A stretch of 55,159 nucleotides of DNA from Minisyncoccia bacterium (GCA_049296855.1 JBAQTF010000014.1:1-55159), one strand, 5' to 3'; positions 2,570-34,158 are shown, counted from the stretch's first letter. Notes: generated by a model not told the origin, from the letters alone. Program-made: numbers and translations.

Positions 2570-2635
2570 GTTTTTAATTTTAATTGTTAATTTTATCGTT
2601 TCTTTCGCCTCGGATTACCTCGGCATAAGTGTATG

Positions 2636-3127
2636 CTACGCTCCCTTAGATTTTGCGATCTGATCCAATGCCATTACAAAACCTTGTATTGGTGAGTTAA
2701 TAAGATTAACAAACTGTGCTTGTAGTGTTTTAAGGGAAGGAATTTGTGAGATGACAAGCATTTCTGCTTGATTCATAAATTTGTTCTCAAACACTCCTCC
2801 GACAATCTGTATCTTCTTATCAAGTTTTTTTTGAAATGTATAGACTTCACGTGCCCCCTCTATAGGATCAGTACCATAGACAATACCTAGTTCCCCAGGC
2901 AAGGTCGGCATGTCCCCAGTTATACCCCCGAGAGCAAGGGCCTTTCGAGTTAAAGATTTTTTGGCAACTGTGTAGCCGATTCCTTTTGCTCGTAGGGCTT
3001 TTCTAATAGTAGATGACTCTGTTACAGGCAGAGCGTGGAAGTTTATAAACACCATCGAAGCTGAATCTTTTACTATCTTTTTTAGTTTAGACAGAATCTC
3101 TCCTTTCTTTTCTTTTGATATAGCCAT
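2636..3127 (-). CDS. rplJ: 50S ribosomal protein L10
   Basis: 163-aa ORF directly upstream of rplL with L10-like sequence (MAISKEKK..., VFINFHALPV...). Confidence 0.9.
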   Translation of the reverse strand: MAISKEKKGEILSKLKKIVKDSASMVFINFHALPVTESSTIRKALRAKGIGYTVAKKSLTRKALALGGITGDMPTLPGELGIVYGTDPIEGAREVYTFQKKLDKKIQIVGGVFENKFMNQAEMLVISQIPSLKTLQAQFVNLINSPIQGFVMALDQIAKSKGA

Positions 3128-4458: not shown

Positions 4459-7400
4459 TTAGTTTGCTCGTGTCCAAGTTTGAACTGGGAAGTCTGTGTT
4501 GGATGGGAATCCAGGCAGACCGTATCCGTTTACCCAGTCAAGTTGTAATTGTGAAGCTGCTGTAGCAACTGGAGTCGTTGTTGAGAACGGTGACCAGATG
4601 ATGTTATCTGTAGCAGCAGAACCAGCTTCAACTGAAGTTACTGTACCCATTAGATACTGTTGTGATCCAAATGAAGTATCAGCCAAGAGAGCAAGACCTA
4701 TTGTCTCTGAAACTGAAGCAGTATCAACAGCTGTTGTAGCCTTCAAGATGAAAGTCTTTGTGCTATTTGCTGGAACTATCTGTGCATTAGATGTGCCTGT
4801 ACCGACTAATTCGATAAAGGTTTCACTAGCTACTGTAGAAGTTGAGTTGTTAAACGCAATTCCATCCCCATATAGAACGAAGCCGTTTGTGCTTCCTCCT
4901 GATGTAGCAATTGAGAATGTGAATTTCTGGAATACAACATCTCGATTGTTAGGGTTTGTAACTGTGAATTTGTACAAATCACCTCCTGCAGCCAATGTTC
5001 CACCATTGCTTGTTACAGCAATTGTAGGAACTGTTCTGAAGATTCTCTGACCGTTTGAAGAAACAGCACCTGTAGTACCTCCACTAACAGTTACTTGTGA
5101 ATCATTTCCTGTAGCGTAGTTACCATTTAGTCCGTTGTTGTCTCCGTTGTAATTAACAGTCAAGAATGCTCCTGGTGTACCTTCGTTAATGTTCTGAGCT
5201 GATAGATCACCCTTAACTGTAATCAATACTGACTCACCTGCAGCTATCATAGGAGCAGGAGAGAGTAATGTTGAAGTAGCGTGATCTGGACTAGCACCTC
5301 CAAACTGAGCAGAACCAATCATAGTTGCACCATTGTATAGGTACACTTTCTGACCGACTAGATCAGCTGGTGAGTTTGAAGCTGTGTTTCCAAGAACTAG
5401 AGCGATTTGTTTCAAGTTAACTGCTTCTGAAGCACCTGCTGTAAATCGGAATCTAGCTAGTTCTGAACCTGTAGATCCAGCCTGAGCTACTTTGTAAAGT
5501 AGAGCTGAATCGTTTGTAACTGTGTAAGAACCACCTGTAGAAGCTGTCATTATCTGACCAGCAGCTGCAGTCATTGTCTCTACTATTGTCAAACCTGAAG
5601 TTACTCCAGTTGCACCAGTGTAGGCTGACGATAGATCAGTCAAGCCCCATGTGATGTTTCCTGATGTAGCACTAGCAGAAACGTTACACTTCAATGATAT
5701 TGTCTTTGAAGTACCTTTTGGAACAACAAATCCTCCACTGTTAAATGTGAATGTGTTATCACCAAGGGCTACTGTAACGTTTGTAGCGTCTGTCAAGTTT
5801 GTCGTACCGTCATACAATCCACAGCTTGAAAGCATTGAAGCTGTAACTGTTGTCAAAGCAAGAAGAGGTTTGAATGTTGATAGTCTAACATCTTCTCCTG
5901 ACTGACCTGCATCAAGTGTGTATCGTGCGAACTCAAATCCTTGAGCTCCTGCGATAACTGATCTTGCTGTAGGTTGTGTAGAAACACTGATAGCCAATGC
6001 ACCAGCTCGAACTGTCATCAAGTTTCCTTGAACAGATGAACTAAATGTTGACAAATCAACTGTGTCTCCTGTTGATTCACCTGTTGGAGTTGACCACTGT
6101 GAACTAGGTGTTGTTGAAGCCTGAACTGAGTCTCCAGATATGAAGTCAGAACTTAGTCTACCAACAAGTTTTAGAACTGTAGTACCAACTGGGAATGTTA
6201 CTGAGTCACCAAATGTGACTGTTCCTGATTGAGCTGCACCTGACCCATCCTCTGGACCAGCTAACACAACACCATTTTGGTTAACCAATTTGATGTTTGT
6301 AATGTGTGCAACTGTATCACCGACAGCAGTAATGTTGAATACCATTTGCTGAACAGTCATAGGTTCACCGCTGAGTTTAACTTCAAATCCACCTAATGGT
6401 TGATCTGCAACTAAAACAGCAATGTTCTGAGCAGCAACAGTGTTTGATTGAGATATGGTATTTGCTACACCAGCTGTGATTGTTACGTTAGAAGCGTTGT
6501 ACCAAGGTGTAGTTGTGTTAAATCCTGTTCCTGTTGAAGCAGGAGTGATTCCGTAACCATAAGTTTCACCTGTTAGGTAAAGATCTGTTGATTTATAAAG
6601 ATCAAAAGATACTTGTCTGTTTGTACCACTAACTATATCACCCTTGATAGAAACTTCTTTTGACAAACCTTCTGCAATAAGAATTCCACCAGGGAATGAA
6701 GCTGAGTAGTATTTACCATCAGAAGAAACCATTGTGTCATATGCAGTACCGTCAACATAAACCTTTACGTTAGCAAGGTCTGATGCCGAAGCTGAACCTG
6801 ACTGATTCCATCTGATAGACCATAGTCTTAGATCTTCACCTGAACCAGCATCAACTTTAACAGAAGAAAATGTGTAGTTTGTTGTACCAATTTCCTTGTT
6901 AGCAGTTGTGTTTGGATCAAGAGAACCTCTAGAAGGTGTTGAAGCTCCTAGTGATAAGTTACTATTCAATGTATGTGATGCTCCTGAGATAGGAAGTGAG
7001 CCTGAAACTGATGCTGAAGTGTTAACTGCAACAACATTTAGACCTGCAACCTGACCAGTATGAGCAGCCATAAGAGCAGCAGTTGTCATGTTACCAGCAA
7101 CAGTCAAAGTCTGAGATGTTCCAGCTTTAACAACAAATGGTTCACCGACTACGGCTTGGTCATTTGAGTTAATAGTTCTTGAAACTCCGATTTGTGTGCC
7201 GTCGCTCTTTAGAAGAACAACGCCAGCAAAAGCGGCATTATCTGCTAGACCTACTCGCTGTACTGTGACTGAATTAACTGTGACATCGCTTGCTCCAGCT
7301 GTAACTACGAACCTTGTGAAAGGAACGCGTGCTGCTGTCGCAGGTGCGAGTGAGTTAACAGGTTGTGAACCAGCCATTACTGACAAAGCACCACCTTGTG

Positions 7401-7887
7401 GGTTAGTACCTGGAACAGTTGGAACTGAAGTTACACCACCACCCATTGAGTTAAGTTTAGCTCGTGTTATAGGACCGACGTAACCAGCAGCTGGTGAAAT
7501 TCCATTTTTTGTCTGGAATTTTGCAACAGCTGATCTAGTTAGAGGACCGAAAGTAGAAGTCTCCATGCCTGGTGAACCAGCGCCTGAAGAAGCTACTTGA
7601 GTATCAGCACTCATGTTTAGAACCTTTTGTAGGTTCATAACATCTGCACCTTTACTACCGATTGTTAAGTTTGTATTGAATGTGTAGCCAGATGAAACTG
7701 TACTACCACCCGTTGTCGCTGAAAGTTGTGCTTGCAACGCGCTAATGGTTGCTAGCAAGCTGTTGATCTGTGCCTGTAGATCTGAAGCTGTATCTGCACT
7801 AGCCAATACTGGCATGAATGCAGAAATCGCCATTACAAATCCAACAGCACCAGCTGCCAACTTTGCAGTTTTTGATGTTGTTATCAT
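4459..7887 (-). CDS. Giant secreted cell-surface protein (about 1142 aa) with an N-terminal peptidoglycan-binding-like domain and long Thr/Ser/Gly/Val-rich beta-repeat region
   Basis: Signal peptide MITTSKTAKLAAGAVGFVMAISAFMPVLASA. PG-binding-like segment GSKGADVMNLQKVLN...LTRSAVAKFQTKNGI. The start is moved to Met43 of the tracked ORF. Confidence 0.85.
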   Translation of the reverse strand: MITTSKTAKLAAGAVGFVMAISAFMPVLASADTASDLQAQINSLLATISALQAQLSATTGGSTVSSGYTFNTNLTIGSKGADVMNLQKVLNMSADTQVASSGAGSPGMETSTFGPLTRSAVAKFQTKNGISPAAGYVGPITRAKLNSMGGGVTSVPTVPGTNPQGGALSVMAGSQPVNSLAPATAARVPFTRFVVTAGASDVTVNSVTVQRVGLADNAAFAGVVLLKSDGTQIGVSRTINSNDQAVVGEPFVVKAGTSQTLTVAGNMTTAALMAAHTGQVAGLNVVAVNTSASVSGSLPISGASHTLNSNLSLGASTPSRGSLDPNTTANKEIGTTNYTFSSVKVDAGSGEDLRLWSIRWNQSGSASASDLANVKVYVDGTAYDTMVSSDGKYYSASFPGGILIAEGLSKEVSIKGDIVSGTNRQVSFDLYKSTDLYLTGETYGYGITPASTGTGFNTTTPWYNASNVTITAGVANTISQSNTVAAQNIAVLVADQPLGGFEVKLSGEPMTVQQMVFNITAVGDTVAHITNIKLVNQNGVVLAGPEDGSGAAQSGTVTFGDSVTFPVGTTVLKLVGRLSSDFISGDSVQASTTPSSQWSTPTGESTGDTVDLSTFSSSVQGNLMTVRAGALAISVSTQPTARSVIAGAQGFEFARYTLDAGQSGEDVRLSTFKPLLALTTVTASMLSSCGLYDGTTNLTDATNVTVALGDNTFTFNSGGFVVPKGTSKTISLKCNVSASATSGNITWGLTDLSSAYTGATGVTSGLTIVETMTAAAGQIMTASTGGSYTVTNDSALLYKVAQAGSTGSELARFRFTAGASEAVNLKQIALVLGNTASNSPADLVGQKVYLYNGATMIGSAQFGGASPDHATSTLLSPAPMIAAGESVLITVKGDLSAQNINEGTPGAFLTVNYNGDNNGLNGNYATGNDSQVTVSGGTTGAVSSNGQRIFRTVPTIAVTSNGGTLAAGGDLYKFTVTNPNNRDVVFQKFTFSIATSGGSTNGFVLYGDGIAFNNSTSTVASETFIELVGTGTSNAQIVPANSTKTFILKATTAVDTASVSETIGLALLADTSFGSQQYLMGTVTSVEAGSAATDNIIWSPFSTTTPVATAASQLQLDWVNGYGLPGFPSNTDFPVQTWTRAN

Positions 7888-7999
7888 ATATATGTTTTTA
7901 ATAAAATAACTTTCTCTATCCTTACTATTAATAATTTTAATAGAGATGAAGTTATGGAAAACGATTAACGCTATTAATACTAACTGAATAATTTTTGAC

Positions 8000-8055
8000 G
8001 TTGCCGTAAACAATTGGATGTAAAAATAAATTTACATTCAATTTTTTACGGCAAC
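8000..8055. other. Long hairpin upstream of the giant surface-protein gene
   Basis: gttgccgtaaa (8000-8010) pairs with tttacggcaac (8045-8055). Inner stem is atgtaaa / tttacat. Confidence 0.6.
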
Positions 8056-12500: not shown

Positions 12501-13568
12501 ATGAAGAAAAAAGAAAAGAAAGAGCCTAGAGAAGCGGTTGGAACAGTAAACGTAGAAAATACACTTCGAGAAATTCGTACAAAATTCGGTGATGATTCTA
12601 TCATGATGCTCGGTGAGAAACCTCATGTAGACGTTAACGCGATCTCAACTGGTTCGATCGGACTCGACGTGGCACTTGGAGTCGGTGGACTCCCTCGTGG
12701 AAGAATCGTAGAAATTTTCGGTCCAGAATCATCTGGTAAAACCACTCTTTCACTCCATGTTATCGCTGAAGCACAAAAGAAAGGTGGTATTTGTGCTTTC
12801 ATAGACGCTGAACACGCAATGGATCCCGAATACTCAAAACGTATTGGAGTAAATATAGACCAACTTCTTATCTCTCAGCCAGACAACGGCGAACAAGCTC
12901 TTGAAATCGTAGACTCACTTGTTCGTTCTGGAAAAATCGACGTTATCGTCGTTGACTCTGTTGCAGCACTCACACCTCGTGACGAAATCGAAGGAGACAT
13001 GGGTGCGCACCATGTTGGTAAACAAGCTCGACTTATGTCACAAGCCCTTCGAAAATTAACTGCTATTGTGGCTAAGTCAAAAACTCTAGTCATCTTTATA
13101 AATCAAATCCGAATGCAAATCGGTGTTATGTTTGGAAACCCAGAAACGACTCCGGGCGGAAAGGCGCTAAAGTTTTACACTTCAGTTCGTATCGATATTC
13201 GCCGAATAGCTCAAATAAAAAAAGGTGAAGAAATAATGGGAGGTCGTATCCGCGTAAAAGTTGTCAAAAACAAAGTAGCCGCTCCTTTTAAACAAACAGA
13301 GTTTGACCTCATGTACAACGAAGGTATTTCTCGCGAAGGTGAACTAATAGCTCTAGGCGAAAAAATGGGGATTATTACAAAGTCCGGCACATCATATAGC
13401 TATGGTTCTGAAAAACTCGGACGAGGATATGACGCTACACGACAATTTTTGAAAGATAAAGCCAACAGTAAAATCGCCAATGTAATATTAAAAGAAATCC
13501 GTGCTGGTCTCGCAAAAAACGGTGGTTCAGTGGTAGCAGTGAGTGGTGGCGAATCAGAAGCTGAGTAA
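12501..13568 (+). CDS. recA: Recombinase RecA
   Basis: [10 protein letters not shown] Walker [10 protein letters not shown] and FINQIR motifs. Confidence 0.97.
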
Positions 13569-23360: not shown

Positions 23361-26300
23361 TTATTTCATAATGGAGAAAGATATCTCCCCATCTGATTCA
23401 ACGATATAATTTTGTTTTTCTTTTGAATATAAAATTTCCGTTATTTGAGTTGGTAACTTTATCATCTCAACATAATAATCAATTAAATTTTGTTTATTTG
23501 TACAGACAACTATTTTTATATTATCACTTGGACTAAGTTTCTCTGTCTTTCTGGCATCTTGAATAGCTCGTATAATATCTCGGGCAATTCCTTCTTCTTT
23601 TAATTCTTCCGTAAGATTTGTGTCTAATTTTATTTCTTTTCCAACTTTAACTTTTTTAACGTTGACCTCATCAGCAATAATATCTAATAGTTCTCGTGAA
23701 AATTTTTGTGGGATAGTAAGTGAAGCTAATGGTTGCCTAACTTTATGTCCTGCTTTTTGACGAAGTTCTAATGCACCTGAAACAACTTCTCGGACTTTTT
23801 GCATATCCTGAAGTAGAATTTCATCCACTATATCGCCTTTTGGCCAATCACATAGATGCACACTTTCTGGGTCACTATTTGATTTTATTTTTTGATATAC
23901 ATCTTCGGCAAAGAAAGGTGTAAATGGCGCCATATATTTCACAAACTCGAAAAGAACAAAAAGTGTGGTGGACAATGCATCATTTCTCTCTTGTTTATTG
24001 TCTGATTTGAAACGATCACGCGAACGACGAATATACCAAGTAGAAAAATCGTTTATAAAATCACGAGTTAGACGTGCAGACTCAAACACTTGAAATTTTT
24101 CAAGTGACTCTGTTCCGTTTTTTATAAGCTGACCTAATCTACTCAAAATCCATTTATCCAAAACATTTTTACTTTGGTTATTTGGTCTTGTATTACTGTC
24201 CTTATATAACTCATAGAAAGCCAGGATATTTAAGGCTGGATTAAAAACTTTTTTAAGTATTTCATCAACCGTTTTCTCGTCAAAGTTTTTGGAATCCCCT
24301 GGCTGGTTAACTGTGTACATCCACAAACGTAAAGCGTCCACTCCATATTTATCCATCAATTCCCAAGGATCCAAAATATTACCAATAGACTTTGACATCT
24401 TCCTCCCATCCTTATCCAAGATATGTCCAAGACAAATGACATTTTTATATGCTTTCCCTCTACCCATCAAAATCCCGATAGCATGTAAAGTGTAAAACCA
24501 CCCTCTGGTTTGATCTATAGCTTCAGAAATAAAATCTGCGGGGTAAGCAAGTTTTTCTTTATTAAAAGGATGATGATCCTGAGCAAAAGGCATACTACCT
24601 GAATCAAACCAAACATCCATAACTTCTTTTACCCTTTTTAGTGGATCACCTTTTTCATCAACAAGCTCAACAGAATCTATATATGGCTTATGTAAATCAA
24701 TTTCATATTTATCGTTATGTGGCATTTTTACGAAATCAATCTCTCTTATCTCTGCATTATCGAAATTTTTAAATTCTTTTGTTATTTTTGAAAGATTTCT
24801 ATACGAAAAACCCTTTGAAATCATTTCGATAGCACGACATGGGGCTCCATGAGAAATGATGAGAATATTCTTATCTTTATATTTTTCATCAGTTTCATAC
24901 ATAAATTTACTTAATCTTTGTAAAACTTCATTGTACGATTCCCCATCAGAAACTTTAAAAGCATACCTGTCTTCACTTTTGTTACGCACAGCAAAGAAAT
25001 CTTCCACAGACTTATGGTTAAATTCTCGACCAGTGTTCCATTCTCCTAAGCCAGAATCAGTAATAATTTTATCCTTTGAAAGTCCTATGATTTTTGCAAT
25101 CAAAACTGCAGTCTCCTGTGTTCTAGAAAATGGCGAAACAATGATTAGATCAATAGACTTGTCAGACAGGAATCTGGCAGTTTCTTTTACTTTCTCCGTA
25201 CCACTATTTGTCAAAGGATCTGAAACATCGAAATTTAGGTTTAATATTTTTTTTACATTTCCTTCTGTCTCACCATGTCGCATTACAAAATACTTATTAC
25301 CAGATTTTTTAGAATATTTCTTCAAATCTTCAACACTTCCTACAACTCGATAATTACCATCTTTGTCAGACCAGATAGGAAGTGGCGTCCCCCAATATCT
25401 CTCGCGGCTTATTGCCCAATCTTTTATTTCACGAAGCCACTCACCAAAACGTCCTTCTTTTATATGCTCTGGTTCCCAATGAATATCTTCATTTTCCCTT
25501 ACTAGTTCATCGCGTAATTTGGATATAGCGATATACCAAGAATCCCTAGCATAGTAGATAAGCGGGGTGCTACATCTCCAACAATGAGGATATGAGTGTT
25601 CATATTTTTCTTTTTTAAAAAGTAAACCTCGGTGAGCTAAATCCTTTATAATACCCACTGCAACTTCCTCGTCTTTTACAAACCGATCAGACAAAAAACC
25701 CATTCCGTCAGCAAAATACCCATCCTCTTTTACAAGGTGGTATTTTGGCAAACCGATTTCATTTCCCAGAACAAAATCGTCCTGACCATACATGACAGCA
25801 GTATGGACAACTCCTGTTCCATCTTCTGTGTTGACAAAATCCGCAGAATAAACTTGATACGACTTTTCAAAAGCAATCTTATCTTTTTCTCCAAACTTTT
25901 CTCTCATAAAAGGATATAGTGGTTCGTATTCCATTCCAACACATTCGCTCCCTTTGTGTTCAGCAATTATCTCGAATGGTTCTGTGATTATCGCAAGTCT
26001 ATCCTTTGCTAAAACTAAAATCTCGTCACCGACTTTTGCCTCGACATAAGTAATGTCTTTACCAACTGCGAGTGCAACATTTCCAGGTAAAGTCCAAGGA
26101 GTCGTCGTCCATGCCAAAAAATAACCCTTATCAAATCCCTTTAATTTAAACTTCACTGTAACTGACAAATCTTTATCATCTTGATACCCCTGTGCTAATT
26201 CATGAGAAGATAATGCCGTTCCACAACGAGGGCACCACGGCAAAACTTTGTAGTCTTTGTACAAAAGTTTCTCCTCGTCTACTGTCTTTAGAATATTCCA

Positions 26301-26801
26301 AACGGACTCTATATAGTCCGTATCAAAAGTATAGTAAGCATCTTTCTTATCAACCCAATACCCAATACGATCGGTAAAAACTTCCCAATCATGAACATAA
26401 TCAAACACACTTTGCTTACACTCTTTATTAAACTTCTCTATTCCATAAATCTCAATTTCTTTTTTTGACTTTAGTCCAAGCTTTTTCTCTATTTGTAATT
26501 CAACAGGCAAACCATGTGTGTCCCAGCCACCTTTTCTCCGTACATGAAATCCCTGCATAGTTTTATAACGAGGAATGATATCTTTAAAAACCCGGGCTTC
26601 GAGATGATGCAAAGCTGGTTTTGCATTTGCCGTTGGCGGACCTTCATAGAAAACAAAATTACCCTTTGAAGACGATCTCTCCAGAGTCTTTTTAAAAATC
26701 TCTTTTTCATTCCAAAACTCTAGTATCTTCTCTTCTCTTTTTGATAGATCACTTTTGAGTGTTTTTGGAGCTTTATCTTCGCTACCTTTCATAGAAGCCA
26801 T
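23361..26801 (-). CDS. ileS: Isoleucyl-tRNA synthetase (type 2-like) with an inserted histidine-phosphatase (phosphoglycerate-mutase-like) domain
   Basis: PPTANAKPALHH, KMSKSIGN, DQTRGWFY. The insert is YFVMRHGETEGN...SPFSRTQETA...ISHGAP, lying between PLPIW and DLHKPYID. The start is taken at MASMKG (26801) or MKG (26792). Confidence 0.9.
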   Translation of the reverse strand: MASMKGSEDKAPKTLKSDLSKREEKILEFWNEKEIFKKTLERSSSKGNFVFYEGPPTANAKPALHHLEARVFKDIIPRYKTMQGFHVRRKGGWDTHGLPVELQIEKKLGLKSKKEIEIYGIEKFNKECKQSVFDYVHDWEVFTDRIGYWVDKKDAYYTFDTDYIESVWNILKTVDEEKLLYKDYKVLPWCPRCGTALSSHELAQGYQDDKDLSVTVKFKLKGFDKGYFLAWTTTPWTLPGNVALAVGKDITYVEAKVGDEILVLAKDRLAIITEPFEIIAEHKGSECVGMEYEPLYPFMREKFGEKDKIAFEKSYQVYSADFVNTEDGTGVVHTAVMYGQDDFVLGNEIGLPKYHLVKEDGYFADGMGFLSDRFVKDEEVAVGIIKDLAHRGLLFKKEKYEHSYPHCWRCSTPLIYYARDSWYIAISKLRDELVRENEDIHWEPEHIKEGRFGEWLREIKDWAISRERYWGTPLPIWSDKDGNYRVVGSVEDLKKYSKKSGNKYFVMRHGETEGNVKKILNLNFDVSDPLTNSGTEKVKETARFLSDKSIDLIIVSPFSRTQETAVLIAKIIGLSKDKIITDSGLGEWNTGREFNHKSVEDFFAVRNKSEDRYAFKVSDGESYNEVLQRLSKFMYETDEKYKDKNILIISHGAPCRAIEMISKGFSYRNLSKITKEFKNFDNAEIREIDFVKMPHNDKYEIDLHKPYIDSVELVDEKGDPLKRVKEVMDVWFDSGSMPFAQDHHPFNKEKLAYPADFISEAIDQTRGWFYTLHAIGILMGRGKAYKNVICLGHILDKDGRKMSKSIGNILDPWELMDKYGVDALRLWMYTVNQPGDSKNFDEKTVDEILKKVFNPALNILAFYELYKDSNTRPNNQSKNVLDKWILSRLGQLIKNGTESLEKFQVFESARLTRDFINDFSTWYIRRSRDRFKSDNKQERNDALSTTLFVLFEFVKYMAPFTPFFAEDVYQKIKSNSDPESVHLCDWPKGDIVDEILLQDMQKVREVVSGALELRQKAGHKVRQPLASLTIPQKFSRELLDIIADEVNVKKVKVGKEIKLDTNLTEELKEEGIARDIIRAIQDARKTEKLSPSDNIKIVVCTNKQNLIDYYVEMIKLPTQITEILYSKEKQNYIVESDGEISFSIMK

Positions 26802-26805
26802 ATTA

Positions 26806-28509
26806 TCACATTTTCTCTGGAATTTTAATCCCCAATAAATTAAGACCGGAAGCCATAACTTGAACAAATACCTTCGTTATGGCCAAACGATAAGAAGAAG
26901 ATTTGTCTTCTACATCTATTATTTTGTGTGAGGCATAAAATGAATTGAACTCACCCGCCAGTTCAATGAGATACGTTGCAATATGGTGTGGAGCATATTC
27001 CATTCCCGCTCGAGCAACAATGTCTGGAAACCTCTCAAGATACCTCTCAAGATTTGTCGTCTCCCACTCACTCGGAAGCTTGGTTTCTGATTTCACAAAG
27101 GGGTCCCCTTTGTGGAATTCTTTTTCGGATTTTTTCAGGACAGATTTTGCTCTCACAGCGGAATACTGCAGATATGGCCCTGAATCCCCCTCAAAAGATA
27201 TGGATTTATCAAAATCAAAAATAATATCACCGCCGATAGCCTGCCGAAGTATCGAGTATTTTATCGCACCGATTGCTATTTGCTCAGCCAAAATTACCTT
27301 TTGTGTGTCATCAATATCCTTATGAAGTTGGCCACTGTCCCACATCTTTTCCAAAACCCTATCTTGCGTTTGCTGAATCAGAGCTTCCGCAGAAATGATA
27401 TTCCCTTCTCGCGATGACATTTTCCCTGTTGGAAGTTTCAAAAGCCCATGTGACAAATGAGTCAACTTTCCTTTTAAATCTGGAAAAACTTCACCAATAG
27501 CCACTTCCACCACTTTGAAAAACGAATCCTGTTCATTTGCCGTGACTGTTATGGACATATCATATGAAAACCAATCTTTTTTTATCTGAGCCAGACCGAG
27601 CTCTTTGGCTTCATATGTCGGCAGACCTTCAGAGTTTAGAAAGACTCTTGTGTGGGTTTTTGGCTCAAAGTTTTCTCCTTTGAAGATAACTGCACCCTTC
27701 ACACCTTTTTCGAAAACTTTACCAACATTTTCCAAAACTAACTCTTTACCGACTTCTCCACTTTCACTTTCAAAAAAGTGATAATCAAAATGATTATCTA
27801 ATTTTTCGTATAATTTTTCAAAATATTCTACCGATTCCTGCCTACCACCCTCATATATTTTATTTATCTCTGGATCACTTTCATCGTATATTTTTGTGTT
27901 TATTTTTGTTATTTCCCGTTTTGCTTTTTCGTCATCTTCATATGCCTTATGTCCAAAAGCATAAGCTTCTTTTATAGAAATGCCTTGCTTTAACGCCCAG
28001 ACGGCTTTGGCGACATGCAAACCAACATCACCATGATATGTAGCAGTTTGCACTTCTGCACCGTTTGCTTTAACAATTCTTGCTACAGACTCCCCTATAG
28101 TATTGTTCATCAAATGCCCTATGTGAAATGTTTTAAAAGGGTTTGGTTGAGTGTGTTCAATGAAAACTTTGTAACCTTTTGCATGTTCATTTTTTCCGTA
28201 TTCACTATCTTTCAAAATATCTTTCACAACATCACCAAAATATTCTTTGTCGAAAGAAAAATTTATAAATCCTGGAGCGACAACCCTGATTTTGATTTGC
28301 TTTAGCAAATCACCCTGAGTAAGTCGAAGGGTTATCTCCTCTGCTAGGTCAATCGGTTTATTCCTCAGCTCTTTTGCATAGGCCATAGCAACATTCGTCG
28401 AATAATCCCCCTTATCGAGATAAACAGAGGGTGTCAGTCTAACCTTAGGATTTTTAATTCCTTTTTTCTCCAGGAAACTCTTTATTTCTTTTTCCAATGT
28501 TTCCTTCAT
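26806..28509 (-). CDS. argS: Arginyl-tRNA synthetase
   Basis: NPFKTFHIGHLMN (HIGH motif), 567 aa, with an ArgRS-like N-terminal additional domain. Confidence 0.9.
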   Translation of the reverse strand: MKETLEKEIKSFLEKKGIKNPKVRLTPSVYLDKGDYSTNVAMAYAKELRNKPIDLAEEITLRLTQGDLLKQIKIRVVAPGFINFSFDKEYFGDVVKDILKDSEYGKNEHAKGYKVFIEHTQPNPFKTFHIGHLMNNTIGESVARIVKANGAEVQTATYHGDVGLHVAKAVWALKQGISIKEAYAFGHKAYEDDEKAKREITKINTKIYDESDPEINKIYEGGRQESVEYFEKLYEKLDNHFDYHFFESESGEVGKELVLENVGKVFEKGVKGAVIFKGENFEPKTHTRVFLNSEGLPTYEAKELGLAQIKKDWFSYDMSITVTANEQDSFFKVVEVAIGEVFPDLKGKLTHLSHGLLKLPTGKMSSREGNIISAEALIQQTQDRVLEKMWDSGQLHKDIDDTQKVILAEQIAIGAIKYSILRQAIGGDIIFDFDKSISFEGDSGPYLQYSAVRAKSVLKKSEKEFHKGDPFVKSETKLPSEWETTNLERYLERFPDIVARAGMEYAPHHIATYLIELAGEFNSFYASHKIIDVEDKSSSYRLAITKVFVQVMASGLNLLGIKIPEKM

Positions 28510-28676
28510 TATTTTATAATAACATTTTTCTAACTTAAAAGAATTTTTGATCCTTCATTATATTCAAATTAATCAAAAGTAATGACTAATTAGTTATCAA
28601 CAGTTACATTGATAATAAATGATAGACTATATATCATTACTTATAATCCTATTAAGGTTTATTAAGGTAAGACTCT

Positions 28677-28922
28677 ATGGCGAACCAATACATCACAATT
28701 AAACAGGCTTCAAAAATTTTAGGTGTCACTACCCTTACCCTTCGAAATTGGGATAAGAATGGTAAGTTAAAAGCTCATCGCCACCCTATGAATAACTATC
28801 GAGTTTACAACATTGAAGATCTCGAAAAAGTAATCATGGAAATTGAGGCCAACACTGGACTTCGAAAAAGTACAAAAAAAGAGATTAAAAAACTTATTGT
28901 TAAACACTTATACGATGAGTAA
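28677..28922 (+). CDS. Small MerR/excisionase-type HTH DNA-binding protein
   Basis: ITIKQASKILGVTTLTLRNWDKNGKL, 81 aa, with no effector domain. Confidence 0.7.
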   Translation: MANQYITIKQASKILGVTTLTLRNWDKNGKLKAHRHPMNNYRVYNIEDLEKVIMEIEANTGLRKSTKKEIKKLIVKHLYDE

Positions 28923-29034
28923 CAGAATATAAGTAAAATCTTTTGTCAATAGCTATAAATTACTGAGGCGAAAACTTTTATACTGTGATCCATAAAAACT
29001 CCACTTTTGCCCAAACACAATCTGACTTATCTAA

Positions 29035-29063
29035 TTGACCTAAATGTTTATAGAGGGTAATAT
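29035..29063 (+). promoter_or_regulatory. Sigma70-type promoter of folA (-35 TTGACC, 17-nt spacer, -10 TAATAT)
   Basis: TTGACC at 29035-40 and TAATAT at 29058-63, followed by a 21-nt leader with AAGGAG 5 nt before the ATG. Confidence 0.6.
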
Positions 29064-29084
29064 CGTTTTAGAAAAGGAGTCCTG

Positions 29085-29591
29085 ATGAACGGAATTACTA
29101 TAATCGTGGCAATGGACAGAAACCGAGTCATCGGAAAGCAGGGTGAGATTCCTTGGAGTGGACACCTCCGAGACGACATGAAACACTTCAAGGACTACAC
29201 CACGGGAAAGACCGTAGTGATGGGGAGAAAGACTTGGGATTCAATTCCACCCAAGTTCAAACCTTTACCAATGCGTGAGAACGTGATTATGACGAATGAC
29301 CAGAGGTTCAAAGCTTCTGATTGCTTTCTCATCCACAGTCCTGACGCGATCAAAAGTCTGTCTGGGATTCAAGAGATCTGTATCATTGGCGGTGCAGAAA
29401 TCTACAAACTCTTCCTGCCGATGGCAGACAAACTCATTGTTACGATCGTCGATACAGAAGTCCTAGGTGGTGACGCGTTCTTTCCAGAAATCACCGAGGA
29501 ATGGGACGAACGACTGTTGTCAATTCACAAAGCTGACGAAAGAAATTTGTTCCCCTTCTCCATCTTCGAATACACAAAAGATCCATTCTAG
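29085..29591 (+). CDS. folA: Dihydrofolate reductase
   Basis: IVAMDRNRVIGKQGEIPW...VVMGRKTWDSI...IGGAEIY. Confidence 0.9.
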   Translation: MNGITIIVAMDRNRVIGKQGEIPWSGHLRDDMKHFKDYTTGKTVVMGRKTWDSIPPKFKPLPMRENVIMTNDQRFKASDCFLIHSPDAIKSLSGIQEICIIGGAEIYKLFLPMADKLIVTIVDTEVLGGDAFFPEITEEWDERLLSIHKADERNLFPFSIFEYTKDPF

Positions 29592-29602
29592 TTCTGACAT
29601 TC

Positions 29603-29635
29603 TCGACCGCGCCCACAAAGCGCGGTCGATTTTTA
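29603..29635 (+). terminator. GC-rich rho-independent terminator after folA
   Basis: tcgaccgcgc-ccacaaa-gcgcggtcga followed by ttttt. Confidence 0.85.
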
Positions 29636-29636
29636 T

Positions 29637-29664
29637 TTGACTGACTACAAGAAAATGCTAGTAT
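29637..29664 (+). promoter_or_regulatory. Sigma70-type promoter of the thyA-like gene (-35 TTGACT, 16-nt spacer, extended -10 TGcTAGTAT)
   Basis: TTGACT at 29637-42 and TAGTAT at 29659-64. The leader has AAAGGAG 5 nt before ATG 29701. Confidence 0.6.
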
Positions 29665-29700
29665 CAAAAACAGAAACCAGTTCCAGTAAAAGGAGTTGTG

Positions 29701-30624
29701 ATGGACCCGAAGTATCTACCATACGAGAATCGTCAACCAAACACTCAGTACAAGAACCGTCTGAGTTCTATCCTGAAATGTATCAAAAGGCAGGATATCT
29801 TCACGAAGAATCCGTTCCAGACACAGGGCCGTTATAGTGTGAAGACTCTCAGTCCAATGGTTTTAAAACTCTCAAACGGATTCCCGATCGGAACCGAACG
29901 TAACATGAAGATGTTCTGGGTAACACCAATCGGAGAGCTCCTCGCGTTCATTCATGGAGTTCGTGATGCTCGTGTCCTTTCCGAAGAGTGGGGTGTGAAG
30001 TGGTGGCTCAAGCAGTGGGCCACACCTGAAAAGTGTGCTGACTTTGGACTTGAACATCCAGATATGGGACCGGGCTCCTACGGTGGAGCCTTCGAATACG
30101 TTGCACCAGATGGAACAACGTACAATCAGTTCAAGGAAGTACTGAAACAGATGAGAGATCGACCAGATGTGACGACTCACAAAATCACGAGCTGGCTTCC
30201 TCATTACACAATCGGCCATAACGGGAGACAACGAAAAGTCATCGTGGCGCCGTGTCACGGAGACATCGAGATGTACATCGTCAACGGCCGACTGACACTT
30301 CGGATGGATCAAAGATCTGCCGACTTCCCGATTGGAGTTCCGTCCAACACAATCCAGTACGCTGCGCTCACCATCATGATCGCACATGTACTCGGACTCG
30401 AACCAGACATGCTGATCCACTCAACACATGACAGTCACTTCTACGAAGACCAGCTCGAAAACGTCAGAGAGTTGGTTAAGTGTCCGACCTACCGGTACCC
30501 AAGTGTCTACCTGACTGAGGAAGGTCAGAAAGTAACAGACCTCTTCGATTTCAGACCGAGTCACTTTAGACTCGAAGATTACCACCCTGGACCAGCGATG
30601 AACAAAATCCCTGTTACGACCTAA
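29701..30624 (+). CDS. thyA: Divergent thymidylate synthase (ThyA family)
   Basis: Catalytic APCH, QRSADFPIGVPSN (uracil-specifying Asn retained), HDSHFY. The N-terminal DRTGTGT motif is not recognisable. Confidence 0.8.
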   Translation: MDPKYLPYENRQPNTQYKNRLSSILKCIKRQDIFTKNPFQTQGRYSVKTLSPMVLKLSNGFPIGTERNMKMFWVTPIGELLAFIHGVRDARVLSEEWGVKWWLKQWATPEKCADFGLEHPDMGPGSYGGAFEYVAPDGTTYNQFKEVLKQMRDRPDVTTHKITSWLPHYTIGHNGRQRKVIVAPCHGDIEMYIVNGRLTLRMDQRSADFPIGVPSNTIQYAALTIMIAHVLGLEPDMLIHSTHDSHFYEDQLENVRELVKCPTYRYPSVYLTEEGQKVTDLFDFRPSHFRLEDYHPGPAMNKIPVTT

Positions 30625-30639
30625 GCTCTTTCGACCAAG

Positions 30640-30675
30640 CAGGTCGCCCCGAAATCCGAGGCGACCTGTTTTTTT
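30640..30675 (+). terminator. GC-rich rho-independent terminator after thyA
   Basis: caggtcgcc-ccgaaatccga-ggcgacctg followed by ttttttt. Confidence 0.85.
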
Positions 30676-30698
30676 ATTAATGGTAATGAATTTAAAGA

Positions 30699-30776
30699 CA
30701 GAAGTACTCCTGTGGTGCGACCTAAATTTCTTGAGCAAAGCGATTAGAAATTGGAAGTACTCTTGTGATGCCGGAC
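30699..30776. repeat. Family-3 repeat (two cores flanking an aatttct...agaaatt hairpin) inside the high-GC island
   Basis: cagaagtactcctgtggtgcgacct (30699-723) and ggaagtactcttgtgatgccggac (30753-776). The rc aligns with 49495-49555. Confidence 0.7.
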
Positions 30777-30823
30777 TTGTTTTTTTATAAAAAAATGATA
30801 GAAATAGGTTCAGAGAGGTACAA

Positions 30824-31285
30824 ATGGCCAAAGTAAAGCTAGACAACTCTAGACATCCGGAACAACGAGAAAGAATGGAAGAGCTCGTTCGAACCGGACA
30901 GTGTCACTTCTGTAGAAAAGGATTCGAGGACCGGCATAAAGCACCGATCATCCACGAGACTGACCATTGGTTCGTTACTGCAAACAACTTCCCGTACCAA
31001 GGTAGTGTTCACCACCACCTGATCGTTCCCAAAATCCACATCACGAGATTGAGAGAACTTGGGAACGAGGCTAGGATTCAGTTGTTTGATGTCCAGGCCT
31101 GGCTTGAGGATTATCTAGGTACCACTGGATCATCAACATTTGTCAGGTCTGGAGATATGGATCTGACTTGTGCGACACTTGATCATCTGCATTTTCATCT
31201 GATTGTTGGGGAGAGAAAAGTCGGTGACAGTCCCAACCAGCTTGAAGATCTTATCCTCGTTCCAGTCGGTTACAAAAAGAAATGA
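30824..31285 (+). CDS. HIT-family (histidine triad) nucleotide hydrolase/transferase
   Basis: C-terminal LDHLHFHLIVG (HxHxHxx) and N-terminal CHFC. Confidence 0.8.
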   Translation: MAKVKLDNSRHPEQRERMEELVRTGQCHFCRKGFEDRHKAPIIHETDHWFVTANNFPYQGSVHHHLIVPKIHITRLRELGNEARIQLFDVQAWLEDYLGTTGSSTFVRSGDMDLTCATLDHLHFHLIVGERKVGDSPNQLEDLILVPVGYKKK

Positions 31286-31325
31286 AGAGAGCCCGGCCGC
31301 GCTATTGCGCGGACCCGGGCTCTTC
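31285..31325. terminator. GC-rich bidirectional hairpin between convergent genes
   Basis: gaagagagcccggccgcgc-tatt-gcgcggacccgggctcttc. It overlaps the last codons of the 31302..32150 CDS. Confidence 0.7.
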
Positions 31326-32150
31326 TACTACCTGAACAATCTCTACTCCGTTTGAACGTAAAACTTCTTGTGCATTCAAAACAGAGTAGCCTTCTTGAAA
31401 GAACACTCGCTTGACACCAGCGAAAGCGATTTCTCGTGCACAATCTTCGCACGGGAAAGTGGTAACGTACAGGAACGCACCTTTGAGTGTAAGCCCGTAC
31501 TTTGCGCAAAGAGCAACTACTGCTCGCTCTGAGTGCAAAGAAACGTACTTACCCTTTTGGCCCGCATCCACGTTCAATCGTGGATCACCGAAAATGTACG
31601 TTTCGTACTCGTTCGGCATGTGAGTGTTACAGGCAACGGCCAGAAGATTACCTTCATCGTCAAACGCTGATGCAGCTATCTGACGCCACCAATCTGGACT
31701 CTCTAGGGATTTGGTCTTAGTAAACCGCATCCGCAAATTATCCAAAACGGAATTGCTGACCACTACGTCGGCAATGACAGGCTGTTCCTTGTGAACCGCC
31801 GTCATATCCCATCTCGCCCAAATCATTTCGAAAGTCGATTTGGCGTGAGCAGGATTGATGTATCGTTCAGTGACAGCATGCGACACGTCTTCGTCTGGCA
31901 AAATCCAGTCCCAATCCGCCGGGCGGAGATATTCAGGATTGAATATCGTTACACCCTGAACGAGACGAGTAGATTGAATGATCTCCAACATCATATTTGT
32001 TGGAAGAGCAACAATATTACGAGCAAGTCTCGGAATCAGTTGCTCTGCCATTTCTTGTGATATCAGAAACAACACACTCTCCTTGTGCCTCTTGAACCAG
32101 TCCAAATGACGCTGGTTCAAGACCGGAATGTAGGCAATGAGGTTGCTCAT
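31302..32150 (-). CDS. Two-domain protein: unknown N-terminal domain (about 150 aa) fused to a dCMP/cytidine deaminase zinc-binding domain
   Basis: C-terminal LHSERAVV (H-x-E) and TFPCEDCAREI (PCxxC). The N-terminus MSNLIAYIPVLNQRHLDWFKRH is not recognised. Confidence 0.8.
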   Translation of the reverse strand: MSNLIAYIPVLNQRHLDWFKRHKESVLFLISQEMAEQLIPRLARNIVALPTNMMLEIIQSTRLVQGVTIFNPEYLRPADWDWILPDEDVSHAVTERYINPAHAKSTFEMIWARWDMTAVHKEQPVIADVVVSNSVLDNLRMRFTKTKSLESPDWWRQIAASAFDDEGNLLAVACNTHMPNEYETYIFGDPRLNVDAGQKGKYVSLHSERAVVALCAKYGLTLKGAFLYVTTFPCEDCAREIAFAGVKRVFFQEGYSVLNAQEVLRSNGVEIVQVVEEPGSAQ

Positions 32151-32773
32151 TTCTTCTCCTTTCCAAAACTAACCTCTCGACCAGCTTGCCTGAAATAACT
32201 GTCGATTGCTTGAGCAATGTGATCAACGAGACCACCTGCACCGTCAATCAGAAGTTCACGAAGCATCTTAGTCGTCGAGTTATCTGCTGTAGGATCGAGA
32301 ATTTCAAGTCTCCCACAAAGTGCTCTGAGATCATTGTATTTTTCCTCGCCAACATCTTTCGTAGAACGAGAAACCACAAGAACATCTGGCCTAACTACTT
32401 TGATGACAAAATCTGGGTCAGCCTCATGCTCCTTCAGATCGCGAATCGTCAGAATATCCACGCTCCGGAGATTGGCTAGAAGTTCAAGCCTTTCTTGAAA
32501 CGGAACAACTGGGCGACGTTCGTTTGCCTGCTGTTTACGCTTGCGCGTGTATTCGTCAGTATCGACGGCCACAACCAGAATGTCACCGTACGACTTTGCG
32601 GCAGTTAGATATCGGGCATGTCCGATATGAAGAAGGTCGTAGACACCCTGGGTCATCGAAATGATGTGACCAGAATCTCGAAGGGTCTGGAGCTTCTTTG
32701 TGAGCTCATCATAGTCTGGAATGTATCTGTCATCCAGACACACTCTATTGCTCAAAATGTTTTTGATCGACAA
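32147..32773 (-). CDS. Cytidylyltransferase-like nucleotidyltransferase (RfaE domain II / TagD-like)
   Basis: GVYDLLHIGHARYL (HxGH), ILVVAVDTD, RPVVPFQERLELL. TTG start with AAGGAAGG upstream. The stop overlaps the next start (ATGA). Confidence 0.75.
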   Translation of the reverse strand: MSIKNILSNRVCLDDRYIPDYDELTKKLQTLRDSGHIISMTQGVYDLLHIGHARYLTAAKSYGDILVVAVDTDEYTRKRKQQANERRPVVPFQERLELLANLRSVDILTIRDLKEHEADPDFVIKVVRPDVLVVSRSTKDVGEEKYNDLRALCGRLEILDPTADNSTTKMLRELLIDGAGGLVDHIAQAIDSYFRQAGREVSFGKEKK

Positions 32774-32832
32774 CTCACACCTTCCTTTCGTTAAACATGT
32801 ACGCCTCTAACTTAACTATTACCACAAACCAT

Positions 32833-32866
32833 AAAAAAAGATACTTCACAGAAGTATCTTTTTTTG
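32833..32866. terminator. Bidirectional terminator downstream of rplK
   Basis: aaaaaaa-gatacttc-aca-gaagtatc-ttttttt. Confidence 0.75.
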
Positions 32867-32889: not shown

Positions 32890-33312
32890 CTACTTCACAT
32901 CAACCCCCATTGAACGTGCCGACCCCGCAACAATTTTCATCGCAGCATCGATGTCGTTTGCATTCAAATCAGGCATTTTCTTTTCTGCAATTTCTTTTAG
33001 TTGAGCTTTTGTTATACTACCAACTTTTGAAACTGTGTTTTTCCCAGAACCTTTTTCTTTACCAAGAGCTTTCAGAATAAGAGATGATGCTGGTGGAGTT
33101 TTCAAAACAAAAGTAAATGTTCTGTCTTCGTATACTGAAATCTCGACAGGGACAATATCCCCCATCATGTTTTTTGTAGCATCGTTAAACTGCTTTACAA
33201 ACTCACCAATAGCCACACCAGCTTGACCCAAAGCAGGACCGACTGGTGGAGCAGGATTTGCCTTACCTGCTGGAATGACGAGTTTTAATTTTTTTGTTAT
33301 TTTTTTAGCCAT
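32890..33312 (-). CDS. rplK: 50S ribosomal protein L11
   Basis: [33 protein letters not shown]... The start is moved to Met27 of the tracked ORF. Confidence 0.95.
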
Positions 33313-33337
33313 ATTTTCTTGTGTTTTATAGATTACC

Positions 33338-33883
33338 TTAAATCTTCTTAATCTGCAAGAAATCCAACTCGACTGGAGTTTCGCGACCAAACATAGCTAC
33401 TAGAACTTTGACTTTTCCGCGCTCTTCATCTACCTCAGAAACTTTACCATCCAAATCTTTAAATGGACCGTCCACGATAATAACAGCGTCGTTAACTGAC
33501 AAATCTATCTTATGTTTTATGTTGTGAGCATTCATTCGACTAAACAATTCCTCGACTTCCTTCGGATCAACAGGTACAGGATAGACTCCAGAACCAACGA
33601 ACCCTGTAACGCGTGGAGTGTTTCGAACGACGTGCCATGAGTGGTCAGTTACTATCATGTCCACCAAAATGTATCCTGGATATATTTTTTCCTCCTCTTC
33701 AACTCTCTTTCCACCTTTAATTTTTATTTTCTTTTCAGTCGGAACAATAACATTGAAAATTTTATCTTCCATTCCCAACGACTCAATACGCTGTTTAAGA
33801 TTCCTCATCACAGCGTTTTCATATCCAGCATATGTGTGAATGACATACCAGTTGCGACCACTTTGTATTTGTTGTTTTGACAT
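33338..33883 (-). CDS. nusG: Transcription termination/antitermination factor NusG
   Basis: [14 protein letters not shown]..., C-terminal KOW ([18 protein letters not shown]). Confidence 0.93.
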
Positions 33884-33927: not shown

Positions 33928-34107
33928 CTAGATAACGAATTTTTCAAGAATCAATTTGAAAATGTAGTCAAAAAACCCTAGGAAAAATGAAACGAATACT
34001 GAGATCAAAACCACTACAATAGTAAAAGCAATGGCTTGGTTGCGAGTTGGCCAACTGACGTGTTTTAGTTCTCCGCGTGTATCTTTAAGGTAATTTATTA
34101 ATGACAT
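33928..34107 (-). CDS. secE: Preprotein translocase subunit SecE (59 aa, not in the ORF track)
   Basis: Hand translation: MSLINYLKDTRGELKHVSWPTRNQAIAFTIVVVLISVFVSFFLGFFDYIFKLILEKFVI. It sits directly upstream of nusG. Confidence 0.8.
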   Translation of the reverse strand: MSLINYLKDTRGELKHVSWPTRNQAIAFTIVVVLISVFVSFFLGFFDYIFKLILEKFVI

Positions 34108-34138: not shown

Positions 34139-34158
34139 AAAAAACCCCTCGGGGGGTC
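34139..34158 (-). terminator. Terminator of the 34197..35015 gene
   Basis: On the minus strand: accccc-cga-ggggt followed by tttttt. Confidence 0.65.

Follow-up and report, generated by a model that had tools for sequence, protein, structure and literature searches.

A GC-rich thymidylate cassette beside rplK in a Minisyncoccia bacterium: a native Patescibacterial locus, probably replaced and recombined in place

The DNA considered here is a stretch of 55,159 nt from a Minisyncoccia bacterium (GCA_049296855.1, JBAQTF010000014.1:1-55159). The whole 55-kb stretch is referred to as the window. It contains, at positions 29030–32810, a block of unusually high GC content that holds five genes: folA, thyA, and genes for a HIT-family protein, a two-domain deoxycytidylate (dCMP) deaminase and a nucleotidyltransferase. 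One flank of the block is rplK; the other is argS together with a gene for an 81-residue MerR-type helix-turn-helix (HTH) protein. The genes and elements are as follows, where GC3 is the GC content at third codon positions.

28677–28922, + strand: MerR/Xis-type HTH gene, 81 residues, GC 0.34, outside the block (PF00376, E 3.4e-11)
29035–29063: promoter-like site before folA; the ribosome-binding site of folA is AAGGAG
29085–29591, + strand: folA, dihydrofolate reductase, 168 residues (PF00186, E 2.4e-49; GC3 0.55)
29603–29629, + strand: terminator-like GC-rich hairpin 3' of folA, 10 pairs of which 8 are G-C, then a T run
29701–30624, + strand: thyA, thymidylate synthase, 307 residues from ATG (PF00303, E 3.8e-44; GC3 0.55)
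30637–30671, + strand: terminator-like GC-rich hairpin and T run 3' of thyA (inverted repeat I16)
30824–31285, + strand: HIT-family protein, 153 residues, triad HLHFHLI (PF01230, E 7e-8)
31287–31324, no strand assigned: long imperfect GC-rich hairpin where the HIT and deaminase genes converge, with a T run after it on the minus strand
31302–32150, - strand: two-domain dCMP deaminase, 282 residues (PF00383 at residues 155–251)
32147–32773, - strand: nucleotidyltransferase resembling HldC/RfaE domain II, 208 residues (PF01467, E 3e-12)
32833–32865, - strand: perfect AT-rich hairpin of 15 pairs downstream of rplK, at the edge of native composition
32890–33315, - strand: rplK (ribosomal protein L11), 141 residues from ATG (PF03946 and PF00298; GC3 0.28)
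33338–33883 and 33928–34107: nusG and then secE, following rplK, the conserved anchor of the cassette

The domain matches agree with the gene set proposed in an initial annotation of this DNA (folA, a divergent thyA, a HIT protein, a dCMP deaminase fusion and a cytidylyltransferase-like gene), and the flanks are, as it described, argS, a small MerR/Xis-like HTH gene and rplK. FolA has a full-length DHFR_1 domain (profile positions 2–159 of 159 in PF00186), and scores under the cut-offs of the narrow NCBIfam dihydrofolate reductase equivalog models. ThyA scores 114.6 bits against TIGR03284 (cut-off 108.35) and 151 bits against PF00303. It is approximately 30% identical to solved thymidylate synthases, and in alignment to them it keeps the motifs PCH (with the catalytic Cys), QRSAD (Arg), GVPSN (which carries the uracil-specifying Asn) and DSHFY. 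ThyA is thus predicted to be a divergent yet ordinary thymidylate synthase and, because a dihydrofolate reductase gene adjoins, to be a true methylase rather than a hydroxymethylase. Its open reading frame (ORF) opens at a GTG at 29698 (308 residues). An exact protein look-up with this GTG-start form gave no match; the database has the 307-residue ATG-start form.

The HIT protein scores 33.4 bits against PF01230 (cut-off 21.5), and HLHFHLI fits the HxHxHxx triad. It has weak matches to solved HIT and Fhit structures, and its branch may be Hint, Fhit or GalT. The nucleotidyltransferase, whose stop codon overlaps the start of the deaminase gene by 4 nt, scores 47.3 bits against PF01467 (cut-off 21), and its HIGH and NSTT motifs are intact. 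With 91.6 bits against TIGR02199 (cut-off 181.5) it lies below the level of the HldC/RfaE domain II equivalog. Among solved structures it is most closely related to a putative cytidylyltransferase (5x9q), a lipopolysaccharide-core biosynthesis protein (3glv) and TagD, and by these matches it is assigned to the wider cytidylyltransferase-like superfamily.

The deaminase has an N-terminal α/β domain of approximately 125 residues, followed by a zinc deaminase domain with HxE and PCxxC motifs. Both domains are conserved, and residues H206, E208, C234 and C237 are invariant in the alignment. The fold of the C-terminal domain resembles the dCMP deaminases of phage T4 (Cd), cyanophage S-TIM5, S. mutans and human, with a Foldseek E of 2.5e-9 against T4 Cd and a target-normalised TM score of up to 0.83 against the other three. 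The protein scores only 43.7 bits against the ComEB equivalog model, where the cut-off is 219, and therefore forms a distinct subfamily. The N-terminal domain is modelled by AlphaFold with a pLDDT of 86. It has no significant structural neighbour in the PDB (best E 0.13, to generic Rossmann folds) and a faint resemblance to FAD synthetase and pantoate-beta-alanine ligase (query-normalised TM score approximately 0.46–0.47). When 1.84 billion cluster representatives were searched with a profile, the domain turned up in 356, nearly always in proteins of approximately 280 residues or in shorter, probably truncated ones, and in no other domain context that would hint at a function.

On the basis of the domain families and catalytic motifs, the deaminase would convert dCMP to dUMP. 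ThyA would methylate dUMP to dTMP using 5,10-methylene-tetrahydrofolate, releasing dihydrofolate, which FolA would reduce to tetrahydrofolate. The route from dCMP to dTMP and the recycling of dihydrofolate are therefore encoded, as in the dCMP-to-dTMP module of the initial annotation. In relatives, neighbouring genes for dUTPase (dut), serine hydroxymethyltransferase (SHMT) and sometimes thymidylate kinase (tmk) would complete the cycle. As a low-confidence guess, the HIT protein and the HldC-like nucleotidyltransferase would feed or regulate the supply of (d)CMP, for example by nucleotidyl transfer followed by HIT hydrolysis that frees a nucleoside monophosphate.

The block was also said to have promoters and terminators unlike those of the surrounding genome. 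GC-rich hairpins do occur at three sites in the block, with three predicted plus-strand terminators in the cassette, and the spacer between the HIT and deaminase genes (31286–31301) is 81% GC. However, a GC-rich hairpin is found outside the block as well (34143–34158), and promoter-like sigma-70 sites number 23 in the window against 20.8 expected, so that there is no enrichment. No riboswitch or leader was found in or near the block: Rfam at gathering thresholds gave tRNAs alone in the window.

The GC content of the block is 0.467, compared to 0.368 for the rest of the window, and the richest 3781-bp stretch of the window begins at 29050. Relative to non-overlapping stretches of the same length, of which the highest reaches 0.414, the block has a z of 5.7. 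Two-state segmentation places its edges at 29106 and 32745, which correspond approximately to the starts of folA and of the nucleotidyltransferase gene. In a 400-bp profile, GC rises from 0.29–0.36 at 28400–29199 to 0.43–0.52 over 29000–32800, and returns to 0.36–0.40 past 32800. Outside the block, every 1-kb bin of the window is at or below 0.426. The initial annotation had counted 50–53% GC by hand, which holds for the peaks (maximum 0.517) and not for the mean, and the island that it reported is real by windowed GC and GC3.

Most of the shift is at synonymous sites. The five genes of the block have GC3 values of 0.43–0.55, compared to 0.26–0.37 for the flanking genes (ileS, argS, the HTH gene, rplK, nusG, secE and three further neighbours). 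The rise is present at four-fold sites and in both pyrimidine-ending and purine-ending two-fold codons, in both operons. Non-coding spacers have a GC of 0.39–0.42 in the block and 0.18–0.32 outside. There is a mild shift to GC-rich codons in the amino-acid composition of the deaminase and the nucleotidyltransferase, which fits a long-standing GC pressure. The tetranucleotide distance of the block is 0.41 against a mean of 0.18, although another region of the window reaches 0.44. The block is, on these measures, compositionally foreign to its own genome.

Two observations on composition may be added. Antisense ORFs of 182 and 141 residues lie on the minus strand at 29872–30846, within thyA and the spacer that separates it from the HIT gene; rather than genes, these probably reflect the scarcity of stop codons in GC-rich DNA. 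The next GC-richest part of the window (0.38–0.43 in 1-kb bins) is an ORF of 1184 residues at 4459–8013 on the minus strand, rich in Ala, Thr, Ser and Gly and with the look of a surface protein. This region may be the other tetranucleotide outlier.

In a scan of one genome per species the two-domain deaminase had at least 539 confirmed relatives, of which the best 80 loci were kept for counts. All 80 are from Patescibacteria, by title or by synteny. The nucleotidyltransferase gene is directly upstream of the deaminase gene in 75 of 77 loci; thyA is downstream and convergent with it in 70 of 73, as is the HIT gene in 65 of 73. The core of the cassette, in the order nucleotidyltransferase > deaminase < HIT < thyA, is near-universal. 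folA was found in 48 of the 80 loci, and of the 60 species-level loci that could be evaluated for rplK, 42 have it no more than 3 kb upstream of the deaminase gene. In a search of 5.8 billion proteins, the closest homologues came from Parcubacteria, Minisyncoccia and Paceibacterota, with identities of up to 84% for ThyA and 72% for the deaminase.

The contigs of relatives have the order recO-ileS-argS-[SHMT, dut]-folA-thyA-HIT-deaminase-nucleotidyltransferase-rplK-nusG-secE-SIMPL-PAP2, and the section from ileS to secE, with the cassette, is present in loci L001, L003, L005 and L087–L089. dUTPase, SHMT and sometimes thymidylate kinase genes adjoin the cassette in relatives. In L083 a thymidylate kinase gene (12757–13398, - strand; PF02223, E 3.6e-38) lies between thyA and rplA, so that in this lineage the cassette reaches the step from dTMP to dTDP.

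The initial annotation took the block for an added thymidylate supply in a lineage that generally salvages nucleotides, which does not hold given at least 539 deaminase relatives in species-representative contigs and 80 kept loci that are all Patescibacterial. It also named conserved homologues and synteny in related Patescibacteria of similar GC, or a GC shift that disappeared on windowed calculation, as findings that would point away from acquisition. Homologues and synteny are indeed conserved; the GC shift does not disappear, and relatives share it (see below).

Among close ThyA matches there is a single label from outside the Patescibacteria. This is L090 (GCA_043804185.1, JAZDJG010000148.1), labelled 'Thermoplasmatota archaeon', which has the Patescibacterial arrangement argS-SHMT-folA-thyA-HIT and a ThyA 58% identical to that of the window; it is probably a mis-binned Patescibacteria contig. 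It is worth adding that the isoleucyl-tRNA synthetase of the window (23361–26867, - strand) has an inserted histidine-phosphatase domain (phosphoglycerate-mutase-like, 'RHGET'), and that the layout tRNA-synt_1 / His_Phos_1 / tRNA-synt_1 recurs in ileS of L001, L003, L005 and L087–L089.

In the window and its close relatives the cassette lies straight downstream of rplK, where rplA, the gene for ribosomal protein L1, would normally follow, and an insertion at the place of rplA had been suggested. L1 was found in seven loci, of which six also show rplK, and the order rplK-rplA-cassette is found in all six (L039, L050, L051, L053, L073 and L083, of Saccharimonadia and Uhrbacteria type). In two of these, L073 and L083, the cassette is flanked by rplK-rplA on one side and rplJ(-rplL) on the other. 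A tblastn search with three Patescibacterial L1 queries found no L1 in the window or in the loci of its group. rplK, rplJ and rplL are all present in the window, with rplJ-rplL at 2159–3127 on the minus strand, approximately 30 kb from rplK. The OD1-L1 Parcubacteria are a described lineage lacking ribosomal protein L1 (PMC5220378, PMC7304191). As is characteristic of that lineage, rplA adjoins neither rplK nor rplJ in the window, and rplA is missing here because this is an OD1-L1 genome. The suggested insertion therefore falls: rplA was not displaced by the cassette but was lost, the cassette having always followed it.

The two-domain architecture of the deaminase is common to two types of cassette. 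Type I has a deaminase at least approximately 45% identical to that of the window (26 loci, the window itself being type I), and type II one that is at most 38% identical (43 loci). In the deaminase tree type I is a single clade; in the ThyA tree it is mostly coherent, with L030 outside and L081 inside. The GC content of the block minus that of the host is +0.084 for type I (n = 26, with 22 of 26 above 0.04; slope on host GC 0.48) and +0.008 for type II (n = 43; slope 0.90; r 0.95). For hosts below 42% GC the excess is +0.091 for type I against +0.017 for type II (Mann-Whitney p = 2.5e-7, an optimistic value, as the loci are phylogenetically non-independent and no phylogenetic correction was applied). 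In L001, L003 and L005 the five cassette genes have GC3 values of 0.46–0.66, compared to 0.18–0.41 for the flanks, which include dut and SHMT. The edge is sharp: folA has a GC3 of 0.50–0.58, and the neighbouring dut and SHMT genes have native values of 0.18–0.33. Species representatives yielded no GC-rich donor or host of type I, the GC of type I hosts reaching 0.48 at most, and three further metagenomic relatives are likewise AT-rich hosts. The GC excess is thus heritable and tied to one type of cassette. In two type II loci the HIT gene alone has a high GC3 (0.66 in L070 and 0.52 in L071, with neighbours at approximately 0.25–0.30), a sign that single genes, too, may have been swapped in the manner of the cassette replacement discussed next.

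A host tree was calculated by neighbour-joining from nusG, rplK and argS (859 columns, 200 bootstraps). The clade of the window is recovered with L062 in 93.5% of bootstraps and without it in 0%, and the type I hosts are recovered as a single clade in 0%. L062 has the same synteny, and it is similar to L001 in the flanks (nusG 92%, rplK 89%, argS 66% identical) but not in the cassette (deaminase 34%, ThyA 44%, HIT 22%). L062 carries a type II cassette of native GC, which shares 64–83% identity with its counterpart in L079, a more distant locus. The trees of adjacent type I genes also conflict. For thyA, the window, L001 and L003 group together with 100% bootstrap, whereas for the nucleotidyltransferase these three are split at 100%, their grouping having 0%, and fall into two classes that are approximately 40% identical to each other. 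The deaminase tree groups L001, L003 and L012 at 96.5%. The HIT tree groups L001 and L003 at 100%, and the HIT protein of the window is 43–48% identical to either.

Since the type I hosts are not one clade, L062 has a type II cassette, and the gene trees conflict, we infer, from tree incongruence only, that the cassette has been exchanged in place. We therefore hypothesise that the block is a native, phylum-wide cassette at its ancestral rplK(-rplA) site, which has been replaced and recombined in place among Patescibacteria, and would put the probability of this at about 0.72. The horizontal acquisition proposed in the initial annotation then stands as far as one Patescibacterial version of the cassette took the place of another. 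It does not stand as a foreign insertion, as relatives have the cassette at this locus.

Several points weigh against replacement in place and the functional scheme that goes with it. The host trees are neighbour-joining trees of two or three proteins, argS itself has possibly been transferred, and a full phylogenomic tree could render the type I hosts more coherent. The comparison of GC excess carries the optimistic p value noted above. No donor, mobility gene, flanking repeat or recent transfer (more than 85% identical) was found. GC-biased conversion, invoked below, is disputed in bacteria. The roles given to the HIT protein, the nucleotidyltransferase and the N-terminal domain of the deaminase are guesses. 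Finally, dUTPase, SHMT and thymidylate kinase were not detected in the window, so that completeness of the pathway in this genome is only conjectural.

The locus could instead have been inherited purely vertically, type I being the version of one host clade with its GC kept high by selection on DNA or mRNA, such as rare-codon throttling of expression, or thymine sparing in genes needed for recovery from dTTP shortage. The type I gene trees do roughly track host groups, the amino-acid composition of the deaminase and nucleotidyltransferase is also shifted, and an excess that outlasts synonymous saturation calls for a continuing force, such as selection. However, L062 is nested in the host clade of the window (93.5%) and yet has a type II cassette between conserved flanks, and the conflicting topologies of adjacent cassette genes have 96–100% support. 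Nor is there an excess in type II cassettes of equally AT-rich hosts; dut and SHMT, neighbours in the same pathway, are at native GC, which shows that the function needs no high GC; and the non-coding spacers of the block are GC-enriched as well. On this evidence we regard vertical inheritance alone as unlikely.

The initial annotation preferred a recent horizontal island, possibly derived from a phage, inserted at the former site of rplA, and pointed to the combination of dCMP deaminase, thymidylate synthase and dihydrofolate reductase in phage T4 (cd/td/frd). The compositional shift is genuine and its edges are sharp, the three enzyme functions parallel the T4 trio by domain, and a small Xis/MerR-like HTH gene adjoins. 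Against this, all relatives examined, and most sampled Patescibacteria, have the cassette at this locus, and rplA is absent across the lineage (PMC5220378). The best homologues are Patescibacterial. In a tblastn search of 50,697 phage records, the top ThyA match reaches 31.6% identity, and the deaminase has matches in its C-terminal domain alone, at 30% or less; the two-domain deaminase is absent from these records, and a scan of IMG/VR with the deaminase alignment gave no confirmed relative. There is no integrase, the flanking repeats around the block are short pairs at chance level with none that is convincingly att-like, and the nearest tRNA is approximately 7 kb off. The HTH gene is of native GC and is missing from relatives that have the cassette. 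Of the marks of an island, compositional deviation is thus present, and absence from relatives, signs of mobility and homologues in a foreign clade are not. A phage origin is contradicted by the nearest homologues, and a recent island of any source is very improbable.

The HTH gene deserves a separate remark. It matches PADLOC mad1 (E 6.6e-13) as well as IS607 N-terminal and excisionase models, and the 86 other loci gave no homologue of it; in relatives the position is taken by dut and/or SHMT. It may be the remnant of a small insertion that removed dut.

A defence or counter-defence cassette that manipulates nucleotide pools, for example by a dCTP deaminase like DcdV/AvcD, had been offered as a further possibility. 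The best NCBIfam and PADLOC matches of the deaminase core are indeed to anti-phage dCTP deaminase models (E approximately 1e-18), and the extra N-terminal domain is uncharacterised. However, the match spans only approximately 66 residues at the zinc site (residues 204–266, with 66.9 bits against a cut-off of 400 for NF041025, and profile positions 438–503 of 630 for PADLOC dCTPase). The N-terminal domain has no P-loop or Walker A motif on reading its sequence and no kinase-like structural neighbour, and PADLOC gave no match for the other four cassette proteins. The deaminase gene adjoins ribosomal genes across the phylum and goes together with thyA, folA, dut, SHMT and tmk, which is a housekeeping pattern, unlike that of sporadic defence islands. 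A role in defence therefore has very little in its favour. A chimera of assembly or binning, in which a GC-richer fragment of another organism was joined in, would explain the abrupt change of GC at both edges, but can be dismissed, as the same junctions (with rplK on one side and argS, dut or SHMT on the other) occur in more than 25 independent NCBI, JGI and Logan assemblies.

Replacement in place does not by itself account for the high GC of type I. Between the window and its nearest relatives, the proportion of synonymous sites that differ (pS) is 0.59–0.93 for every gene of the cassette and flanks. With synonymous sites saturated among all the genomes sampled, one old import cannot explain the excess, since it would have drifted to host composition; and as there is no GC-rich type I host, the excess needs a continuing cause. 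Our preferred candidate is that recurrent exchange with GC-biased repair or gene conversion would maintain the GC of type I, and GC-biased gene conversion has a precedent in bacterial genes that recombine (Lassalle et al. 2015, PMC4450053). Other candidates are an unsampled GC-rich reservoir, and selection on the DNA or mRNA of the type I cassette. Thymine-sparing selection as a general cause was rejected, as no GC excess is seen in type II cassettes or in dut and SHMT next to the cassette, and a dTMP-specific need for high GC is unlikely. Two further readings are conceivable, although held only tentatively, and they are compatible with each other. One is that recurrent uptake or recombination among Patescibacterial lineages, coupled to GC-biased repair, would keep the 3.7-kb type I cassette 8–17 GC points above its AT-rich genomes for an indefinite time. 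The other is that the nucleotidyltransferase, the N-terminal domain and the HIT protein, as an invariant trio, would form an uncharacterised route, enzymatic or regulatory, that supplies or gates (d)CMP for making thymidylate in these symbionts, which scavenge nucleotides.

Patescibacteria are thought to depend on scavenged nucleotides. A near-universal cassette anchored at rplK suggests that the balance of dCMP and dTMP is a core function that they keep in-house, and the HIT protein, the HldC-like enzyme and the N-terminal domain of the deaminase are three conserved candidates for new pyrimidine enzymology. The locus would be a clean natural case of in-place replacement of a housekeeping operon. 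It also provides a caution for island callers based on GC, in that this compositional island is not readable as 'recent foreign DNA'. The locus may also serve to test for GC-biased conversion in bacteria and, if the preferred cause is correct, would be an unusually strong and local example of GC elevation driven by recombination.

The locus can be compared with several known systems. folA of candidate-phyla-radiation bacteria complements E. coli lacking folA, and the synteny and co-occurrence of thyA and folA are known as a 'functionally coupled unit' (PMC11974145). The cassette resembles such thyA-folA units, and the cd-td-frd set of T4, in the chemistry predicted from its domains and motifs (dCMP deaminase, ThyA and dihydrofolate reductase) and in the adjacency of thyA and folA. 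It differs from both in its core order of nucleotidyltransferase > deaminase < HIT < thyA, in having folA in 48 of 80 loci, in the family-specific N-terminal domain of the deaminase, in its rplK(-rplA) anchor, and in its identity of approximately 31% or less to phage enzymes.

With DcdV/AvcD (NF041025, PADLOC dCTPase) it shares a zinc core of dCMP-deaminase type fused to an extra N-terminal domain. However, the alignment is limited to the 66-residue core, a P-loop kinase-like domain is lacking, and the context is a housekeeping one found across the phylum. The sharp compositional break of approximately 3.7 kb over functionally coherent genes is that of a classical genomic island, except that there is no integrase, att-like repeat or adjoining tRNA, the locus is filled in all relatives, and the homologues are from the same phylum. 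The raised GC3 in a segment with independent signs of recombination is as expected from GC-biased conversion (Lassalle et al. 2015, PMC4450053). Unlike the genome-wide trends in that work, however, the effect in type I would be approximately +20–35 GC3 points in one 3.7-kb cassette of one type, and is thus far stronger and more local.

A close parallel in kind is with the xenologous displacement of genes in situ, which produces mosaic operons. It is a concept reportedly set out by Omelchenko, Makarova, Wolf, Rogozin and Koonin in Genome Biology in 2003. Here too, the position and flanks of the operon are kept while genes are swapped for distant orthologues, leaving neighbours with conflicting histories. 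The locus departs from that model in that donor and recipient are in one phylum, in the exchange of a whole five-gene cassette as well as of its sub-segments, and in a GC excess kept long past synonymous saturation, which the model does not predict.

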